Assembly: GCA_039738415.1 (NCBI GenBank)
Contig: JBCLLY010000006.1
Coordinates: 1,814-65,813 of the forward strand
Direction: 5' to 3'
Origin: Candidatus Levyibacteriota bacterium
GTDB lineage: Bacteria; Patescibacteriota; Microgenomatia; Levybacterales; GWA1-39-11
Length of the DNA stretch: 64,000 nt
The notes under the pieces were generated by a model. It was not told the DNA's origin, did no database searches, and was given only the letters and a program-made list of their open reading frames with translations. Of the stretch, positions 39,898 to 62,582 are shown in pieces (position 1 is the first letter of the stretch; every line of letters begins with the position of its first letter). Both the position numbers and the translations under genes were made by a program.

Positions 39898-39952
39898 GGG
39901 ATAAGAAAATTTTTCTCATTGACACGTTTTGGTCTATTTGGTAGTATAAATC

Positions 39953-52262: not shown

Positions 52263-52466
52263 GAGAATGTATATTTTAACATTTTGAGCCTATTCTAGCC
52301 AAAAGTCAAATAAATTTGAATTTATTTGCAATGCTACGATTTGGCACAAAATCCTAAAGTCGGGTTGGAATGAGTTAAAAAAGAAGCCTTTTTCTATAAG
52401 TACCTATTGTCAATCTCAGCTTGCACTGAGCTTGCTCGCCTCGCTGAGTCGAAGCGGGCCAAAGTG

Positions 52467-52540
52467 TGAGCCGACTGGGACTCGAACCCAGAACCAAAAG
52501 CTTAAAAGGCTTTTGCTCTACCAAATTGAGCTATCGGCCC
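52467..52540 (-). tRNA. tRNA-Lys (TTT)
   Basis: Sense strand GGGCCGA-TA-GCTC...GAGC-A-AAAGC-CTTTTAA-GCTTT-TGGTT-CTGGG-TTCGAGT-CCCAG-TCGGCTC-A. No encoded CCA. Confidence 0.9.
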
Positions 52541-53621: not shown

Positions 53622-53640
53622 GAGTCCCAGTCGGCTCACA
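53622..53640 (+). repeat. 19-nt copy of the tRNA-Lys 3' end (GAGTCCCAGTCGGCTCACA), att-like and inverted relative to the gene
   Basis: Exact reverse complement of 52465-52483 (T-loop to 3' end of tRNA-Lys plus 2 nt). Marks the left edge of the accessory region. Confidence 0.8.
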
Positions 53641-55073: not shown

Positions 55074-55080
55074 AGGATTT

Positions 55081-55140
55081 TACCTTAAATAGTGCACCTT
55101 ACCCTTGTCAAAAGAGGGGAACAGTCCCCTTATTTGAGTA
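55081..55140 (+). repeat. intergenic repeat family T, copy 1 (27-nt core TACCTTAAATAGTGCACCTTACCCTTG plus hairpin AGGGGA-ACAG-TCCCCT and a T-rich tail)
   Basis: The core is identical to 56972-56998. The second half is similar to 57024-57053. Terminator-like hairpin at 55115-55130. Confidence 0.8.
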
Positions 55141-56824: not shown

Positions 56825-56971
56825 ACAACAATCGTAATAACTCAAGAATACCTGATAGCTTCACTTTTTTACTCACAAAAATTACTGCTTTAATTTTCAC
56901 TAGAAGCTCAAATGATTCGCAGAATCTTAAACTTTACCCCAAATACTCCTTGACTTACCTCAAACACTCCT

Positions 56972-57053
56972 TACCTTAAATAGTGCACCTTACCCTTGCA
57001 CTTCGGAGATCTCAGTGTAAACAAAAAGAGGGGCGCAGTCCTTTATGTGAGTA
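56972..57053 (+). repeat. intergenic repeat family T, copy 2 (with a 24-nt internal insertion)
   Basis: 27-nt core identical to copy 1. The tail AAAAGAGGGGCGCAGTCCTTTATGTGAGTA is a degenerate version. Confidence 0.8.
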
Positions 57054-57166
57054 CTTTTGTTCGTTTATTCGAACAATTGGTATAGAAAAGCTATTAATCT
57101 AATGGTTCGATATATTAGAACAATTGTTTTAGGTTTCTAGTTTTAAGTTTTACGTTTATTCTCCAG

Positions 57167-57341
57167 CCTCAGGAGAATACATTTTATTCTATCGTTTGAA
57201 TGGATGGTTTTGTTTAGTCTAATGTTTCGATACATTAGACTGGGTGTTTGAATTTATTTGGGAGTAGAGGTGAGGCCTCTATTCAGTTTATCTCAGGATT
57301 TGGGTTTCATTGGTGAAAAGGTCTCACCTCTACACGGTAAT
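57167..57341 (+). repeat. 175-bp direct repeat R, copy 1 (two internal hairpins)
   Basis: 169 of 175 positions identical to 60428-60602. Hairpin 1 at 57216-57241 (10-bp perfect stem AGTCTAATGT/ACATTAGACT, loop TTCGAT). Hairpin 2 at 57264-57333 (14-bp stem GTAGAGGTGAGGCC/GGTCTCACCTCTAC). Confidence 0.9.
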
Positions 57342-57359
57342 TTGTATTATAATTTTTAT

Positions 57360-57581
57360 ATGCCGATTATATTTTCTGATCACGCAAAACAGCAGTTGAG
57401 AAGAAGGAAAATACCCCAAAAATTAGTAATTGAAACAATTAAAAACTTTGAGGGTAAAGGCGCAAGTTTTAAGGAGCGTAAGTTGCGGCAAAAGACGTTT
57501 GGTGATAAAATATTGGAGGTGGTAACAAAGACCGAAGGATCAAAAGTAACGGTTATTACAGGTTACTATATTAATAAATAA
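57360..57581 (+). CDS. DUF4258-like protein (putative toxin of a two-gene TA-like pair)
   Basis: MPIIFSDHAKQQLRRRKIP... The ATG at 57360 sits 6 nt after TATAAT (57348-57353). The longer track ORF reads through repeat R. Confidence 0.6.
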   Translation: MPIIFSDHAKQQLRRRKIPQKLVIETIKNFEGKGASFKERKLRQKTFGDKILEVVTKTEGSKVTVITGYYINK

Positions 57582-57583
57582 TT

Positions 57584-57784
57584 ATGAAAATGAGATACGA
57601 TAAAAAAGTAGATGCAGTCTACATTGAATTGGCAAAAGGCTTATATGATAGTTCGCGCAAAGTGTCTGATGTGATTGTGGTGGATGAAGATAAAAAGGGA
57701 AAAGTTTTGGGAATAGAAATTTTGGATGCCTCTAAAAATATTAATGCATTTGACCCAAAATCTATATCTGTAGCTACCTCCTAG
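57584..57784 (+). CDS. DUF2283-like protein (putative antitoxin partner)
   Basis: YDKKVDAVYIELAKG...GKVLGIEILDASKNI pattern. Starts 2 nt after the upstream stop. Confidence 0.6.
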   Translation: MKMRYDKKVDAVYIELAKGLYDSSRKVSDVIVVDEDKKGKVLGIEILDASKNINAFDPKSISVATS

Positions 57785-57827
57785 TTTTTTTATTCAAGCC
57801 TTAATTTGTAACGAATACAATCTCAAC

Positions 57828-57887
57828 AAAATTCGCATCCCAGCCTTGACTAGACCGCCGAGTCTAGGCGGGCCAGCTACAGGAAAG
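57828..57887 (+). repeat. junction repeat J, copy 1
   Basis: AAAATTCGCATCCCAGCC-TTGACTAGACCGCCGAGTCTAGGCGGGCCAGCT-ACAGGAAAG. Confidence 0.85.
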
Positions 57888-57935
57888 TATATCTAGTATT
57901 CAATATGAGCGTGCGAGTGTAGTGGTTGCACAGAT

Positions 57936-57959
57936 GTATGATATATCGATATATCATAC
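57936..57959. promoter_or_regulatory. 24-nt perfect palindrome GTATGATATATCGATATATCATAC
   Basis: Exactly self-complementary. Intergenic, about 160 bp upstream of the KilA-N gene. Operator-like. Confidence 0.5.
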
Positions 57960-58067
57960 AGACAAGATGGGTAAATGGGGGGAAGTGAAACTCTTTTACG
58001 TAGAGGTTTTACTTTTATATAAACATAACACGCTGAGGGTTGATGACTAAATTCTAAAAATAGTAAT

Positions 58068-58204
58068 CCAGCCTCAGGAGTGATAATATAAATAAATCAG
58101 ACAAAGCCTTTTAAATTATGAAAAGTAAAAAAATAGAAGTGAAAGGAATTGTAATTGCCACATTTAGCAAAAACGAAAAAGACTATATTTCCCTGACTGA
58201 TATG
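58068..58204 (+). repeat. 137-nt exact duplication, copy 1 (KilA-N upstream region plus first 29 codons)
   Basis: Identical to 62098-62234. Confidence 0.9.
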
Positions 58205-58945
58205 GCAAAGTTTAAATCCTATGATAGTGGAATAGTCATTGCTAATTGGCTGTCAACAAAATACACAATTCAGTTTATGGGAGCTTGGGAACAATTACAT
58301 AATCCGAATTTTAATCTTATTGAATTCCATAAGATTAAAAGTGAAGCTGGATCAAATGGATTTATTGTTTCATCCTCATTTTGGATCAAACAAACTAAGG
58401 CAATTGGAATTATCTCAAGTGCAGGTAGATATGGGGGAACTTATGCCCATAAAGATATTGCTTTTGAGTTTGCAACCTGGCTTTCTCCAGAGTTCAAACT
58501 TTTTCTTATTAAAGAATTCCAAAGACTTAAGGCAGAAGAAAGTGAGCGGCTTGAATTGGGTTGGGATTTGAAAAGAACATTGGCAAAAATTAATTACCGT
58601 ATTCACACAGATGCGATTAAAGAGCATCTCATCCCACCAAAAATTTCTCAAAAATCAACTCAAATCATTTACGCCACTGAGGCAGATGTATTAAATGTAG
58701 CTTTGTTTGGAATAACAGCAAGAATATGGCGTGATCAAAATCCAAAAAGGGAGGGGAACATCCGAGACTATTCTACTGTAGAGCAACTGGTAGTACTCTC
58801 AAACCTTGAAGGAATGAATGCGGAATTTATCCGACAAGGACTATCTCAAAGCGCGCGACTAGTAAGACTTAATATAAATGCAATTTCTCAAATGAAGTCA
58901 CTTCTTGGAAACCCAGCGGTGAAAAAGTTAGAAAAACAAAAATAG
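58118..58945 (+). CDS. KilA-N domain-containing protein
   Basis: ISLTDMAKF...GRYGGTYAHKDIAFEFATWLSPEFKLFLIKEFQRLK, typical of the KilA-N family often found near restriction-modification loci. Confidence 0.8.
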   Translation: MKSKKIEVKGIVIATFSKNEKDYISLTDMAKFKSYDSGIVIANWLSTKYTIQFMGAWEQLHNPNFNLIEFHKIKSEAGSNGFIVSSSFWIKQTKAIGIISSAGRYGGTYAHKDIAFEFATWLSPEFKLFLIKEFQRLKAEESERLELGWDLKRTLAKINYRIHTDAIKEHLIPPKISQKSTQIIYATEADVLNVALFGITARIWRDQNPKREGNIRDYSTVEQLVVLSNLEGMNAEFIRQGLSQSARLVRLNINAISQMKSLLGNPAVKKLEKQK

Positions 58946-58948
58946 TAT

Positions 58949-58997
58949 CTCAGCCTCGACTAGACCGCCGAGTCTAGGCGGGCCAGCCACCGGAAAC
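58949..58997 (+). repeat. junction repeat J, copy 2
   Basis: CTCAGCC-TCGACTAGACCGCCGAGTCTAGGCGGGCCAGCC-ACCGGAAAC. Begins 4 nt after the KilA-N stop. Confidence 0.85.
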
Positions 58998-59006
58998 AGT
59001 TTTAAT

Positions 59007-59042
59007 ACGGAGAAGGTGTACCCCCAAATCACGGAGAAGGTG
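59007..59042 (+). promoter_or_regulatory. 12-nt perfect direct repeat ACGGAGAAGGTG x2 (24-nt period) upstream of a promoter
   Basis: Copies at 59007-59018 and 59031-59042. Possible regulator-binding sites. Confidence 0.4.
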
Positions 59043-59065
59043 AAATATCCGTCTTATACAAAGTG

Positions 59066-59093
59066 TTGAAATAATCTTAACTCATAGTATAAT
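59066..59093 (+). promoter_or_regulatory. sigma70-type promoter TTGAAA-N16-TATAAT driving a leaderless transcript of the 231-aa ORF
   Basis: -35 at 59066-59071, -10 at 59088-59093. The ATG at 59099 is 5 nt after the -10 hexamer. Confidence 0.6.
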
Positions 59094-59098
59094 GCGGT

Positions 59099-59794
59099 AT
59101 GAGTAATTTTAGAGAGGAAATGGACAAAGCAAGAAGGGCTGCTGAAGAAGCAAGTAGAAATAATCAAAAAAAAGTTGAAAAGTCAGAGTTGGATGTCAAT
59201 TCATGGGGATATCTCTGGAAAAAAAAGGAATTGCAAAAAGACTATCAGGGGATATATATAGAAAATGTTATAGTGCCAGTCATAGCAGAGGTGAGGCAAG
59301 TTTTAAACGAACAAAGAAAGGGAGATGAATGGTCAAGCAAAAGAGTGCAAGACCATGTTGACTTTAGAATCAACTGGCCAGGGGGTGACGGTGCTGAAGG
59401 GGCTGACCCACATACACAACACTATCATGAAATATTTGATGGCGTATTACTTACACAAGTACAAAAAACTGGACTGTTACGTAGACCAGTTGTACTACAA
59501 ATATTTTCCGGCTTTACTCAAGATGTACGGGAAGGCAGTGATATTTCACATACCGTTTTAATTAGGGCTGCATTAAGTTCTGATAGAAATAGATGTGCTG
59601 TTGAGCTAGGACAAAATCCAATTGATAGCAGTTATTATTGGATTCCGGGAAATAATGCTTGGATTCATCAAGTAGAACATAGTATTGAAAATATAATATC
59701 ACCATCCTCAGAAGTGGCTTCTAATGAGATGAGTAGACTACGTTCTCATCTTTCATCCATTGTTGTTTCTCTCCAAGGAAAAGGAAATATGTAG
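59099..59794 (+). CDS. hypothetical protein (231 aa), no recognised family
   Basis: Long ORF with a charged coiled-coil-like N-terminus. Locally more GC-rich than its surroundings. Confidence 0.5.
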   Translation: MSNFREEMDKARRAAEEASRNNQKKVEKSELDVNSWGYLWKKKELQKDYQGIYIENVIVPVIAEVRQVLNEQRKGDEWSSKRVQDHVDFRINWPGGDGAEGADPHTQHYHEIFDGVLLTQVQKTGLLRRPVVLQIFSGFTQDVREGSDISHTVLIRAALSSDRNRCAVELGQNPIDSSYYWIPGNNAWIHQVEHSIENIISPSSEVASNEMSRLRSHLSSIVVSLQGKGNM

Positions 59795-59812
59795 ATGGAG
59801 TATGTATAAATG

Positions 59813-59870
59813 AATTCGCATACCAGCCTCGACTAGACCGTCGAGTCTAGGCGGGCCAGCCACCGGAAAT
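59813..59870 (+). repeat. junction repeat J, copy 3
   Basis: AATTCGCATACCAGCC-TCGACTAGACCGTCGAGTCTAGGCGGGCCAGCC-ACCGGAAAT. Confidence 0.85.
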
Positions 59871-60061
59871 TTGTCCAGTTTGATCTAGTTGTTAATAGTT
59901 GACACTACAAATATAGTGGTTTAACATAATTTTGGATACTACATAGCAGCGGAATAGGAGAAGGAGATATGGGAAGAGTTTTTACATTTGAAATCACAGC
60001 ACCAAGGACGCACAAAAGCGACGGAGGTGTTTTTTTGTGGTTATTCTTATGAAAGGAGGTG

Positions 60062-60337
60062 ATGAAAATGAAAGAAAAAAAACAAAGTCAGGAAGTCCAA
60101 ATTAATTTCGATTTTGGTGCAGAACCAATTTTGTATACTGACTCAATTTTTATTACATCAAATGAAGATGGAATAATTATTAACTTCAGTCAACCTCAAG
60201 CCATTCCTACACAACAGAAAGTTGTAGCAAGAATAGGTATGAGTCGGGAACATGCCAAAAAGTTCATTCAAAAAATTAGCAATTTATTTGCTATTACTGA
60301 AAATAATAAGCAAATTGGTCAAAAGTCCCAGAATTAA
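60062..60337 (+). CDS. DUF3467-like protein
   Basis: ILYTDSIFITSNEDGIIINFSQ...KVVARIGMSREHAKKFIQKISNL resembles the DUF3467 pattern. SD AAAGGAGGTG upstream. Confidence 0.55.
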   Translation: MKMKEKKQSQEVQINFDFGAEPILYTDSIFITSNEDGIIINFSQPQAIPTQQKVVARIGMSREHAKKFIQKISNLFAITENNKQIGQKSQN

Positions 60338-60342
60338 CCTAG

Positions 60343-60370
60343 AGCCGGCTGGGAGAAATCCCACTCGGCT
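60343..60370 (+). other. hairpin AGCCG-gct-GGGA-GAAA-TCCC-act-CGGCT with a GNRA tetraloop
   Basis: Follows the DUF3467 stop. Its 5' arm contains GGCTGGGA, the reverse complement of the junction-motif core TCCCAGCC. Confidence 0.6.
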
Positions 60371-60427
60371 TGCTCCATTTCTGATCATAACAAAAAAATA
60401 AGGAAATTAAAATAATTAGGAAACTGA

Positions 60428-60602
60428 CCTCAAGAGAATACATTTTATTCAATCGTTTGAATGGATGGTTTTGTTTAGTCTAATGTTTCGATACATTAGA
60501 CTGGGTGTTTGAATTTATTTAGGAGTAGAGGCGAGACCACTATTCAGTTTATCTCAGGATTTGGGTTTCATTGGTGAAAAGGTCTCACCTCTACACGGTA
60601 AT
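60428..60602 (+). repeat. 175-bp direct repeat R, copy 2
   Basis: Six mismatches relative to 57167-57341. Same orientation, same length. Confidence 0.9.
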
Positions 60603-60644
60603 ATAGTGCTATGTGGATGGCCGAGGTTTTGGTTTCTTTAGATT

Positions 60645-61502
60645 TTAACTCCAGCTTTCCCCAAGATATTGAACAAGTAATTCGCGCAGTCGTTCTCCGC
60701 CAATAAGTTCAACATTGTTAACTTTCGCTAGCTGAATGGCTTCTGGAGTGAAATATGAGGTAGTAACAACCATAGCGCGCGTGCAATTATAAAGTTTTAA
60801 TGCAGTACTAGCTTCTTGCACCGCAGAATTACCAACGGATCCTGTATAGCACTTTGCTTGCACAACAACCCTTTCTGAGCCCATATTCACAACTAAATCA
60901 CAACCCTGATCACCAGTTTTACCTGTTTTCATAGCAGAGTATCCCATCGCTTCATATAATTTACATAAAAGAACTTCAAATTCAGTACCCGTTAATTGGC
61001 TAGTTGTATGAGGTATGCTTGCGATGCTGTCGCGGACAAATTTATCCTCTTTATTATAAATGTAATGCTTAAGTAGCAAGCTAATATCTTTATAGTCGTC
61101 CATAGAGAGTTTGACACCTTTGTCATGTAGCGCTTTTCTGAAGATTTCTAGCTGCTGCCATGTGAACGAGAACTCTCCGTCTTTCCATAAATCTTTTCCT
61201 GCCTTTTTTTGATAGCCAAGACTGTTTATAAAGTTTTTTATATTTTCATCAGCTCCAGCTTGTTTAACTGAATCAAGCAAATCTGATATTTTCTTCTTTT
61301 GTCTCTTTGATTGAAAATCATGCCATGCATAAATTCCAATCACTATGAGAACAAGTGCTATTGCGCCACCCCAAAGCAAGACAAAAAAAAGGGAGTTATT
61401 GGTTTTAAAAAGAGATACTAAATAAAAAGTAGCCAATACAAAAATAAAAAATATTATTTTTGCTAATGTGTAATCATTATTCCTATATCTCCCTCGAGCC
61501 AT
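60645..61502 (-). CDS. membrane-anchored restriction endonuclease-like protein (Mrr_cat-type PD-(D/E)xK domain)
   Basis: The ATG at 61500-61502 (MARGRYRNNDY) is preferred. Two N-terminal TM helices. C-terminus FEVLLCKLYEAMGY...GDQGCDLVV...VVQAKCY... Confidence 0.7.
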   Translation of the reverse strand: MARGRYRNNDYTLAKIIFFIFVLATFYLVSLFKTNNSLFFVLLWGGAIALVLIVIGIYAWHDFQSKRQKKKISDLLDSVKQAGADENIKNFINSLGYQKKAGKDLWKDGEFSFTWQQLEIFRKALHDKGVKLSMDDYKDISLLLKHYIYNKEDKFVRDSIASIPHTTSQLTGTEFEVLLCKLYEAMGYSAMKTGKTGDQGCDLVVNMGSERVVVQAKCYTGSVGNSAVQEASTALKLYNCTRAMVVTTSYFTPEAIQLAKVNNVELIGGERLRELLVQYLGESWS

Positions 61503-61646
61503 ATAATAATAGTAGCACATTTTTCTTAAGGACTGAAAGGAGCAATTAACAAAATTAAATGGGAATTCGCAAAATTCGCATCCCAGAATCAGGAGTGGTA
61601 GAATAGAGTTCATCGAATTAATGTTTAATAAGAAAATTAAAAATAT

Positions 61647-62090
61647 ATGGAAAAAATCAATCTATTCGACCTAAAAACACTACTCAAGGGAAGGGATTGG
61701 GCAGACTTGACGAAGCAGGAACGGTTGGAAATCTCCCAAAAAATATTAGACCTGATTTCACAGGATTAGCCAAGTTTGTAAACGAAAATCCTCAAGGATT
61801 TACTATCAACATAAATGGAGTACCAGCCACTAAGGGTTTTGTGGTATCACCTTACAAGGGTAGGGAAACTATTCTTGAAATAGTAGATGAGAATTCTATC
61901 AGAGATTTTATATCAAAAAACATAGATTTATTACAACAAGAAGGTAATTTTTTTGGAGGATGGAAAAATTCAAAGGGAAAATTCTAGATATTATGGAAGG
62001 GCAGGTAAAATATTATCCCAACGGGAAAATTTTTGATACCAATGACCCTAACCACAACAGAAGCTTGGAAATTTTAATTAGAAGCAAAAT
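61647..62090 (+). pseudogene. fragmented gene: three consecutive ORF pieces in different frames
   Basis: Pieces are MEKINLFDLKTLLKGRDWADLTKQERLEISQKILDLISQD*, then ...FVNENPQGFTININGVPATKGFVVSPYKGRE...FFGGWKNSKGKF*, then MEGQVKYYPNGKIFDTNDPNHN.... Consistent with frameshift and nonsense decay. Confidence 0.35.
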
Positions 62091-62097
62091 TCGCATC

Positions 62098-62234
62098 CCA
62101 GCCTCAGGAGTGATAATATAAATAAATCAGACAAAGCCTTTTAAATTATGAAAAGTAAAAAAATAGAAGTGAAAGGAATTGTAATTGCCACATTTAGCAA
62201 AAACGAAAAAGACTATATTTCCCTGACTGATATG
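62098..62234 (+). repeat. 137-nt exact duplication, copy 2
   Basis: Identical to 58068-58204. Confidence 0.9.
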
Positions 62235-62490
62235 CTGCGGGCTAAAGATGGTGATTTCTTTATTTCTGATTGGTTGAGAAATAGGAATACAGTTGAATTC
62301 ATTGGTATATGGGAAAAGTTGAATAATCCGAATTTTAATTATGGCGAATTTGCCATAATTAAAAGTCAGGTAGGATTAAACAGCTACAAGATTAGTGTTA
62401 AAGAGTGGGTCGTGTAATACTTAATCTTACACAATCTCTCAAATGAAGTCACTTATCGGGAACCCAGCAGTGAAAAAGTTAGAAAACCGG
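62148..62490 (+). pseudogene. KilA-N gene remnant (mosaic with an internal deletion)
   Basis: The first 29 codons are identical to the 58118 copy. These are followed by a divergent KilA-N N-domain (WLRNRNTVEFIGIWEKLNNPNF), a premature stop at 62415-62417, then the out-of-frame C-terminal tail (QMKSLIGNPAVKKLE). Confidence 0.7.
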
Positions 62491-62548
62491 AATTCGTAAT
62501 CCAGCCTCGACTAGACCGTCGAGTCTAGGCGGGCCAGCCTCAGGAAAG
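62491..62548 (+). repeat. junction repeat J, copy 4
   Basis: AATTCGTAATCCAGCC-TCGACTAGACCGTCGAGTCTAGGCGGGCCAGCC-TCAGGAAAG. Lies immediately upstream of hsdR. Confidence 0.85.
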
Positions 62549-62582
62549 TGGAATTTAAGTTCAAGAAGTGGTAGAATAAATC

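Follow-up and report, generated by a model that had tools for sequence, protein, structure and literature searches.

Here we analyse a stretch of 64,000 nucleotides from a Candidatus Levyibacteriota bacterium (GenBank assembly GCA_039738415.1, contig JBCLLY010000006.1, positions 1,814 to 65,813 of the forward strand), hereafter called the window, in which one motif recurs at the borders of gene modules, either in a short form or in a long form that carries an additional 33 nt able to fold into a hairpin. We show that this 33-nt insert is an element in its own right, which lies between unrelated flanks in other Patescibacteria, is present or absent at homologous positions, and recurs in frame at one codon of a conserved gene. 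The explanation that we favour, with moderate confidence, has two layers, in which a mobile, GC-rich palindromic mini-insertion element lies inside repeated, promoter-bearing spacers of a defence island. The insert would be a copy of a non-autonomous element, CCAGCCTCGACTAGACCGYCGAGTCTAGGCGGG, which has a low copy number and is dispersed across AT-rich Patescibacteria, and the short form would consist of TTCGCA, an 18-nt spacer containing CCCAGCCTCAGGAG, and TGnTAnAAT, together making up a promoter-bearing intergenic repeat that heads small defence modules.

The element family and its recurrent in-frame insertion are the most interesting product of this analysis. Genomes of the Patescibacteria, or candidate phyla radiation (CPR), are small and AT-rich, and are thought to be poor in repeats. 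[quoted passage not shown] Such an element could help to trace how these uncultivated organisms exchange DNA, could give rise to variation in protein loops, and could offer a handle for finding the enzyme that mobilises it. Within the window, what had looked like module junctions can be re-read, not as an obvious new system of cassette capture, but as promoters that have been duplicated and, in some cases, split by the element, and therefore expression of the defence genes in this island has probably been shaped by insertions.

Presence and absence of the element in other genomes

The unit CCAGCCTCGACTAGACCGTCGAGTCTAGGCGGG(C) was found in at least six other contexts with unrelated flanks, in Doudnabacteria, Saccharibacteria and Paceibacteria-type genomes. 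Its exact 22-mer core, CTAGACCGNCGAGTCTAGGCGG, occurs in two species-representative genomes, which are metagenome-assembled genomes of a Candidatus Doudnabacteria and a Candidatus Saccharibacteria, and in six metagenome contigs as well. It should be noted that these searches required the exact 22-mer, so that diverged copies are missed. The same core had no match in viral contigs, phage records or plasmid records, and a phage or plasmid origin was rejected on this ground. In every case outside the window the conserved unit is the same 34 nt, CCAGCCTCGACTAGACCGTCGAGTCTAGGCGGGC, present as a single copy per contig, with flanks that resemble neither each other nor those in the window. Because this unit includes CCAGCC in every locus, the 5’ CCAGCC is part of the element, and the second CCAGCC(TC), located 3’ of the insert, is a feature of the landing site in the window, which resembles the 5’ end of the element. 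A preliminary description of this DNA had suggested, as one of two alternatives, a tiny hairpin element with a 6-bp target duplication. The mobile unit holds, as attested by its unrelated contexts and by its empty and filled alleles, whereas its boundaries had to be revised and the duplication of CCAGCC around the insert, although plainly visible in the window, is specific to it. At the ATP-grasp site described below no more than 1-3 nt (C/GCC) can be duplicated, three loci carry GA..GA, and a duplication of 6-8 nt is seen in the window only.

With its 33 nt the element is 11 codons long and open in two of the six reading frames, and it can therefore survive inside genes. Outside the window, copies were found inside a housekeeping gene, 66 nt upstream of one tRNA-Gln, ~290 nt from another tRNA-Gln, and upstream of a small heat-shock-like open reading frame (ORF; Hsp20-type, judged by eye), none of them with a cassette. 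The copy in the housekeeping gene lies in frame, on the opposite strand, within an ATP-grasp gene of 406 aa (loci L003 and L008). Most of the 120 ATP-grasp homologues listed are 395 aa long and lack the insert, and the protein alignment reveals a clean insertion of 11 residues, GPPRLDGLV(K/E)A, between EYK and GK. At the DNA level the empty site reads AAAGGTAAA and the filled site AAAGGCCCGCC...GGCTGGCAAA, and comparison of an empty allele (GAATATAAAGGTAAAATA) with a filled one (GAATATAAAGGCCCGCCTAGACTCGACGGTCTAGTCAAGGCTGGCAAAACC) shows that exactly 33 nt have been inserted, with at most GCC/GGC duplicated. This codon is occupied by the same insert in L010, a homologue with a protein identity of only 73%. 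When L003 is compared with L010, 31/33 positions of the element are identical, as against 71% for the gene, 47% for third codon positions and 49/66 for the adjacent 66 nt, and 10/11 third positions within the insert are identical (P ~0.003 by our own binomial estimate, with 47% as background). In a neighbour-joining tree from which the insert was masked, the four filled alleles are scattered, each beside empty relatives. Since similarity in the flanks does not exceed that in the remainder of the ATP-grasp gene, these alignments do not support homologous recombination as the route by which the insert was transferred.

The same codon carries different inserts, rich in GC codons, in several other lineages (GPRTGGAS, SPRQGGAS and others), with insertions of 5-10 aa in P0023, P0055, P0080, P0082, P0087, P0106, P0111 and P0117. 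One of these corresponds at the DNA level to a distinct 24-nt GC hairpin, AGCCCACGCCAAGGCGGGGCAAGT (L024, 2324-2347, contig Ga0315279_10000023), which has 71% GC in a gene of 44% GC. This codon of the ATP-grasp gene appears to be an insertion hot spot, and its recurrent occupation may be read in three ways: as repeated gain at this spot, as upkeep by selection at the nucleotide level, or as frequent precise loss.

As for the two tRNA-Gln loci, both are found in contigs of ~47-50% GC (L005, 1761-2157, and L002, 5767-5937), where the element is located upstream of a minus-strand tRNA-Gln with similar flanks, TTAGA-..-GA, and in L005 a 90-aa ORF with a GIY-YIG-type N-terminus (judged by eye) lies between tRNA-Gln and element. 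The two may represent one orthologous site, or may hint at an associated nuclease. Short repeats of the ATTCG type (ATTCGCA, GTTCGTA, ATTCGCG, ATTCGAAATTCGATATTCGTCATTCGAA), spaced by 7-13 nt, occur at up to ~100 nt from the element in the flanks of L001, L004 and L005, and also in one junction of the window (J6, 61565-61582).

So which of the known families of short repeats does the element resemble? Like the element, the palindromic GC clusters of mitochondria are GC-rich palindromes of ~30-50 nt in an AT-rich genome, with sporadic presence at homologous positions and a tendency to nest or merge, and they too can sit in frame in coding genes (var1). In yeast and other fungi these clusters (e.g. 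GC42) are mobile, exchanged between species and able to merge, by a mechanism that is unknown (PMC4478555). The properties of a mobile palindromic GC cluster were all found for the element, namely an AT-rich host, empty and filled alleles, filled alleles scattered on the tree, greater similarity than its host gene (31/33 vs 71%), and occurrence in several lineages. Unlike the mitochondrial clusters, however, it has a bacterial host, a very low copy number outside the window, no definable target duplication of the AG type, and an unrelated sequence. Rickettsia palindromic elements insert in frame into genes (reviewed in PMC10969869), and they share with the element a palindromic structure, an in-frame location in genes for conserved proteins that tolerate the extra peptide, additional copies between genes, and no known transposase. 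They are, however, ~100-150 bp long and restricted to Rickettsia, whereas the present element has 33 nt and is near-identical across phylum-level CPR lineages.

The element is also an imperfect palindrome of the size of REPs (20-40 nt) that folds as a single strand. With the REPs, their hairpin-forming doublets (REPINs) and the associated tyrosine transposases (RAYTs), it has in common that it is mostly intergenic, often just 3’ of genes, that one strand folds better, and that families share their stem ends. Conversely, REPs have a 5’ tetranucleotide of the GTAG type and tens to hundreds of copies, neither of which applies to the element, which moreover occurs inside an ORF. No RAYT or Y1/HUH gene is present in the window. 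Its four copies of the element fall within 5 kb, the remaining 59 kb have none, and contigs elsewhere have one each, which is not the high copy number of REPs. Compared to a MITE, its halves do form inverted repeats, while no fixed target duplication and no parent insertion sequence were found.

Folding of the element and its landing sites

Folded as single-stranded DNA, the + strand of the element adopts one dominant hairpin, GCC(T)CG(A)CTAGAC-CGTCGA-GTCTAG(G)CGGGC, which has 11 bp, reaches -9.2 kcal/mol (z = -2.9) and accounts for 66% of the ensemble, whereas that of the - strand is ill-defined (z = -1.6). The two mutually exclusive short hairpins that had been proposed before are alternatives without better support than this imperfect 11-bp hairpin. 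In this best fold the polymorphic C/T base is located in the loop, and with T at this site a third alternative stem, CTCGAC/GTCGAG, becomes perfect. Among seven distinct variants all 77 of 77 stem cells pair on the + strand, and each of the four cells that vary has C replaced by U across from a G. The earlier argument that it is the + strand that folds was thus right in its direction, although it relied on the wrong hairpin and on the wrong polarity of the substitution. No two-sided covariation was found among the seven variants, and as the structure is backed only by one-sided C to U changes, these constitute weak evidence. The 66-nt RNA contexts of the hairpins have ordinary folding energies (z -1.1 to +0.1). 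The element may be a substrate for an enzyme that acts in trans, possibly on single-stranded DNA.

The four hairpins of the window are located 4-55 nt past stop codons or a gene remnant. They share the coding strand of the genes upstream of them, and have GC-rich stems in an AT-rich genome. This is what would be expected if the insert were a locally evolved terminator or an mRNA-stabilising 3’ stem-loop, the motif an ordinary 3’ UTR, and nothing in it mobile. However, no T/U tract follows the stem (CCAGCCACCGGAAA or similar), as would befit an intrinsic terminator, the terminator scan does not list any of the four hairpins, and the z-scores of their RNA contexts are those given above. Evolution in situ cannot explain the insert, because the identical 34-nt sequence is present in other phylum-level lineages at unrelated places, including in frame in a gene, and we consider this alternative highly improbable. 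Rfam returned no known RNA family for the motif, at either gathering or E-value thresholds.

The GC content of the window is 30-41%, and its only other intergenic GC clusters are found at tRNA genes or directly beside them. A second GC-rich hairpin, GCCTCGCTGAGTCGAAGCGGGC, is located beside tRNA-Lys (52438-52459, + strand), with stem ends GCCTCG...GCGGGC as in the 33-nt element. It represents a second family of GC hairpins, CTCGCCTCGCT..GAAGCGGG, which is found in this tRNA-Lys flank, in the outer hairpin of L001, and, in a further Patescibacteria genome (L011, 18111-18146), inside a PNPase gene at its 3’ end; both families have stem ends GCCNCG...GCGGGC. In L001, a Doudnabacteria contig, this outer hairpin (CGCCTCGCTCGAC...GTCGAAGCGGGCG, ~660-730) carries the 33-nt element in its loop. 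Moreover, the empty sites reconstructed for L001, L002 and L006 fold into hairpins of their own (z = -2.2, -1.0 and -2.9, respectively), and the insertion falls within the apical loop or next to it. As such, the predicted folds indicate that the element tends toward loops of existing intergenic hairpins. A more far-reaching possibility, which we put forward tentatively, is that Patescibacteria harbour a so far undescribed class of very small mobile DNAs, founded here by the element, with GC-rich hairpins of the type GCCNCG...GCGGGC, that home repeatedly to the ATP-grasp codon and to hairpin loops and cross between phylum-level lineages by means of an enzyme acting on single-stranded DNA. In this scenario the element of the island, together with the CCAGCC-TCAGGAG core, may also provide a crossover point for defence modules.

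Palindromes of a different kind, AT-rich, perfect or near-perfect and 26-38 nt long, are present in the window at 57935-57960 (in the non-coding module M2, GTATGATATATCGATATATCATAC) and at 58309-58340 and 62330-62367, which is the same position in each KilA-N copy.

Junctions of the island as putative promoters

Between 57.1 and 62.6 kb the motif occurs in four long and four to five short copies, always on the + strand, and the rest of the 64 kb has none, which agrees with the positions, sequences and single orientation first described. Allowing up to three mismatches, the 33-mer TCGACTAGACCGYCGAGTCTAGGCGGGCCAGCC matches the whole 64 kb at 57846, 58956, 59829 and 62507 only, all on the + strand, where 0 matches are expected in shuffled sequence, and the 5’ half AATTCGCATCCCAGCC matches five times, always within the island, compared to 0.31 expected. 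The core CCAGCCTCAGGAG is found with up to two mismatches at 57163, 58068, 61583, 62098 and 62534, and a degenerate short copy at ~60420. When the insert is removed, nine junctions (J0 to J8) can be aligned as (A)AATTCGCAT(C)CCAGCC followed by (T/A)C(A/C)GGA(G/A), in which GGAA comes after 4/4 long forms and GGAG after all short forms.

All junctions and element copies given here are on the + strand. Element copy 1 (CCAGCCTTGACTAGACCGCCGAGTCTAGGCGGG, 57840-57872) is located in J1 (57828-57887), 55 nt downstream of the stop codon of the DUF2283 antitoxin, and is also present in a second assembly of the organism (L012). Copy 2, a C variant that starts with TCAGCC (58950-58982), lies in J3 (58939-58996), where the KilA-N stop codon is 4 nt upstream. 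The remaining two are consensus T variants: copy 3 (59823-59855, in J4, 59811-59869), which is found 3’ of a 231-aa ORF and is identical to the copies in L001, L004, L005 and L006, and copy 4 (62501-62533, in J8, 62489-62577), which is found 3’ of a KilA-N remnant and is followed by TCAGGAA and an extended -10 box, TGGTAGAAT, 5 nt ahead of the HsdR ATG. The C/T base had been described as the sole polymorphism inside the insert, but copy 1 differs elsewhere too (TTGAC, CCAGCT). Likewise, the presumed change from C to T has to be reversed: since T is found in all nine copies outside the window (9/9) and is the consensus, the C of copies 1 and 2 is the derived state.

Turning to the short forms, J0 (57157-57179, with CCAGCCTCAGGAG at 57163-57175) marks the start of a structured repeat, R1, and forms a local hairpin, TATTCTCC/GGAGAATA, while its degenerate paralogue J5 (CTGACCTCAAGAG, 60420-60433) marks the start of the second R1 copy. 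J2 (58054-58089) consists of AAATAGTAATCCAGCC, TCAGGAG and an extended -10 box, TGATAATAT, with the KilA-N start codon 28 nt downstream. The canonical J7 (62085-62119), which consists of AAATTCGCATCCCAGCC and TCAGGAG followed by the same box, is the empty-site counterpart of the long forms. J6 (61565-61604) is a variant in which a tandem duplication of AATTCGCA precedes CCAGAA-TCAGGAG. A coding explanation for the motif was considered, as J6 and J7 read KIRIP(A/E)SGV.., but was rejected, as the frames differ at other junctions.

The short junctions share an arrangement of TTCGCA, 15 nt (TCCCAGCCTCAGGAG), and then TGATAATAT (J2, J7) or TGGTAGAAT (J6), and a promoter scan reported TTCGCA-18-TAGAAT with an upstream TG at J6 (61575) and TTCGCA-16-GATAAT at J7 (62090). 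By consensus match, these sites have what characterises a sigma-70-type promoter: a -35-like hexamer, a spacer of 16-18 nt, and TGnTAnAAT upstream of a gene. The housekeeping promoters of this organism consist of TTGACR, 14 nt and TGnTAnnAT, often a few bases before the start codon, for example at tRNA-Asp (38423) and CTP synthase (39939). Because the architecture of the junctions matches that of these promoters, we read the short form as the -35 box and spacer of a repeated sigma-70-type promoter with predicted activity, and not as an empty recombination site. Boxes of the type TGnTAnnAT also precede HsdR, TGATAATAT or TGGTAGAAT is found after J2, J6, J7 and J8, and a KilA-N homologue in another organism is preceded by AGTGGTAAAAT. 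The modules that follow J3 and J4 (M4 and M5) have strong consensus promoters of their own, at 59066 and 59899. In the long forms, the hairpin splits the promoter, leaving -35 and -10 at a distance of 51 nt, and decayed boxes follow GGAA, in contrast to the GGAG-TGnTAnAAT kept in short forms. Separately, the extended -10 boxes TGGTAGTAT (39939-39952) and TGGTAGAAT (62569-62582) are both located 5 nt ahead of a start codon, that of CTP synthase and HsdR respectively, which would imply that leaderless transcripts occur in this organism.

How could these junctions have come about? The promoter repeat would have multiplied through block duplication (J0-R1-cargo-J-x-J-KilA-N-J) and gene conversion, and the hairpin would have landed once in a promoter spacer, at a point similar to its own 5’ end (CCAGCCTC). 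This filled version would then have spread to four junctions, with -35 and -10 parted and the downstream -10 boxes left to decay. The systematic difference between GGAA in long and GGAG in short forms is the reason to think that the four long forms probably stem from one descent, and not from four insertions. Inserted copies may, in addition, insulate the downstream module or terminate transcription.

Conversely, the long form could be ancestral, as a unit of ~60 nt (AATTCGCATCCCAGCC-hairpin-CCAGCCTCAGGA) from which slippage between the CCAGCC(TC) repeats deleted 33 nt, leaving the short form. Direct repeats of 6-8 nt around a hairpin are a classic substrate for slippage deletion, the resemblance between the ‘target’ and the 5’ end of the element would be accounted for, and the paralogous J1 (long) and J6 (short) do differ by presence of the insert. 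However, elsewhere the element has the 5’ CCAGCC only, so that the 3’ copy is not part of it, short forms retain a promoter-like architecture with correct spacing, which deletion scars would have only by coincidence, and independent deletions would not be expected to produce the difference between GGAA and GGAG. We therefore deem this course of events quite unlikely.

Gene modules and repeats of the island

Between the junctions lie, in order, R1 with a toxin-antitoxin pair (DUF4258/DUF2283), a non-coding stretch of 190 nt, a KilA-N gene, the 231-aa ORF, a DUF3467-like ORF, the second R1 with a minus-strand Mrr-type nuclease, a frameshifted small gene, the KilA-N remnant and a type I HsdR. PADLOC assigns KilA-N to the candidate defence gene PDC-S22 (E = 8.5e-127), Mrr to type IV restriction-like and HsdR to type I, and on account of these assignments and the toxin-antitoxin pair we refer to the region as a defence island. 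Its surroundings are a housekeeping segment with ATP synthase, DnaE, GatAB, RuvABC, a penicillin-binding protein (PBP) and GreA. Much of the island is made up of two parallel blocks, block A (57163-58996) with J0, R1, the toxin-antitoxin pair, J1, the non-coding piece, J2, KilA-N and J3, and block B (60422-62547) with J5, R1’, Mrr, J6, the frameshifted gene, J7, KilA-N’ and J8, with two further modules between them. As such, the observation that the motif marks module borders stands, in that homology breaks at the junction core, but it does not amount to nine independent observations, as J0/J5, J1/J6, J2/J7 and J3/J8 are paralogous pairs.

A tract of 137 nt (+ strand) is 100% identical between 58068-58204 and 62098-62234 and starts exactly at CCAGCC, while the KilA-N paralogues are otherwise ~80% identical. 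This suggests that gene conversion or recombination took place here recently and that the junction core was its breakpoint. R1 (175 nt) begins within the CCAGCC-TCAGGAG core, at CCTCAGGAG, and the 3’ KilA-N repeat ends just past the long form; like the 137-nt tract, repeats D1, D3 and D4 each have their start or their end at the core. Because paralogous homology breaks exactly there, the junctions are real module boundaries and probably prone to recombination. Such boundaries do not appear to need a dedicated site-specific system.

The preliminary description had nevertheless considered the junction as a recombination site for cassettes or modules, and in its most specific version this would be an integron-like site at CCAGCC-TCAGGAG, with the recombinase encoded outside the window and the hairpin as a folded, attC-like substrate. 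About nine co-oriented sites bound about nine small modules, including the toxin-antitoxin pair and defence genes, KilA-N lies between junctions in two neighbourhoods, with homology that stops at the junction and a perfect 137-nt tract from CCAGCC, and the second assembly breaks inside the island. Furthermore, the hairpin is imperfect (a bulged T and an A.G mismatch), and its substitutions keep pairing on one strand only. These features recall integron attC sites and clusters of attC sites lacking integrases (CALIN), which likewise consist of co-oriented sites between small modules, form imperfect hairpins with extrahelical bases, as does the long form, and are rich in toxin-antitoxin and defence genes. 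Unlike in such arrays, there is no IntI and there are no R’’/R’ boxes in the junctions, which are conserved in sequence and not just in structure, half of which lack a hairpin, and whose modules have their own promoters, with the hairpin occurring solo elsewhere.

A Pfam scan of all ORFs of at least 120 aa and of the island ORFs found no recombinase, tyrosine, serine or otherwise, no transposase and no HUH gene in the 64 kb, including the upstream side, where an integron integrase would be expected; this agrees with what had been noted before. By inspection, none of the nine junctions has an attC-type consensus or the boxes RYYYAAC/GTTRRRY, and four to five have no hairpin at all. Neither do the modules look promoterless, as most integron cassettes are, being expressed from Pc: by consensus match, promoters lie at 59066 and 59899, and extended -10 boxes come after J2, J6, J7 and J8. 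Outside the window, the hairpin comes without a cassette, and both motif and hairpin are absent at 13 loci with homologues of KilA-N or HsdR, among them L011 and L013-L021 for KilA-N and L022 and L023 for HsdR. The paired structure of the island, for its part, fits segmental duplication. While the boundaries and their breakpoints at the core are thus real, we regard an integron-like origin as unlikely.

Two other types of site were also tried and rejected. The sequence TTCGCAT-CCCAG-CCTCAGG-A resembles the T-loop, T-stem and acceptor 3’ half of a tRNA, and a 19-nt copy of the 3’ end of tRNA-Lys lies nearby, suggestive of a tRNA-derived att site. ARAGORN and Rfam, however, detected neither a tRNA nor a pseudo-tRNA in the island, the would-be T-loop has C at position 58, and there is no intact tRNA at the left end. 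A Xer/dif-like site came to mind as AATTCGCATA is similar to the XerC arm of plasmid dif sites, and was dropped as there is no XerD-type arm.

We must, however, take into account several points that weigh against a mobile element within repeated promoters. Outside the window the exact 22-mer searches yield one copy per contig, an unusually small number for an element of the REP or MITE type, and the target duplication is not definable, as the sole empty site known outside the window allows 1-3 nt at most, compared to 6-8 nt in the window. The recurrence at one ATP-grasp codon could reflect survivorship in a tolerant loop or selection at the nucleotide level, and not targeting. No mobilising enzyme was identified, the window being without a transposase. 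Promoter function is a matter of consensus matches, and promoter-like sites in the island are not above those in shuffles; TTCGCA agrees with TTGACA at 4/6 positions, and J2 has no -35 box. That a promoter spacer is conserved between unrelated modules would be explained by descent only. The 8-nt identity between the target in the window and the 5’ end of the element could instead mean that the short form is a deletion derivative of the long form. Lastly, the island offers no related strain with a different module content, as L012, the only other assembly of the organism, is 99.9% identical and ends inside KilA-N.

The R1 copies themselves (57167-57341 and 60428-60602, 175 nt, 97% identical, each starting at the junction core) are predicted to fold as RNA with -56.6 kcal/mol (z = -4.3), into a 13-bp hairpin and a 15-bp long-range stem, and have no Rfam match. 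One copy precedes the toxin-antitoxin pair, whereas the minus-strand Mrr gene has its copy past the 3’ end. R1 is a candidate for a structured non-coding RNA or a regulatory element. At 61647-62121, three short overlapping ORFs (40, 96 and 53 aa) look like one gene with two frameshifts, and the last ORF runs through J7 (..KIRIPASGVII*). For the KilA-N/PDC-S22 protein (275 aa) there are more than 8000 homologues. The best 120 of them are 70-80% identical, and those with a name belong to several CPR lineages (Roizman-, Levy-, Moran- and Peregrinibacteria). Its gene typically resides in type I restriction-modification operons or beside methyltransferases (L011, L013-L021), and is a widely exchanged defence-associated gene.

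A second intergenic repeat specific to the island is an exact repeat of 28 nt, TTACCTTAAATAGTGCACCTTACCCTTG, at 55080-55107 and 56971-56998, 3’ of a 213-aa ORF and of a 301-aa ORF respectively, with similarity that continues downstream (AAAGAGGGG..CAGTCC). Finally, the last 19 nt of tRNA-Lys (minus strand, 52465-52483) are repeated exactly, in inverted orientation, at 53622-53640, 65 nt past tRNA-Glu, and a motif like AGCT(C/T)(A/G)TGCAAG adjoins both copies. This repeat may be what is left of an integration or inversion where the accessory region has its left edge.

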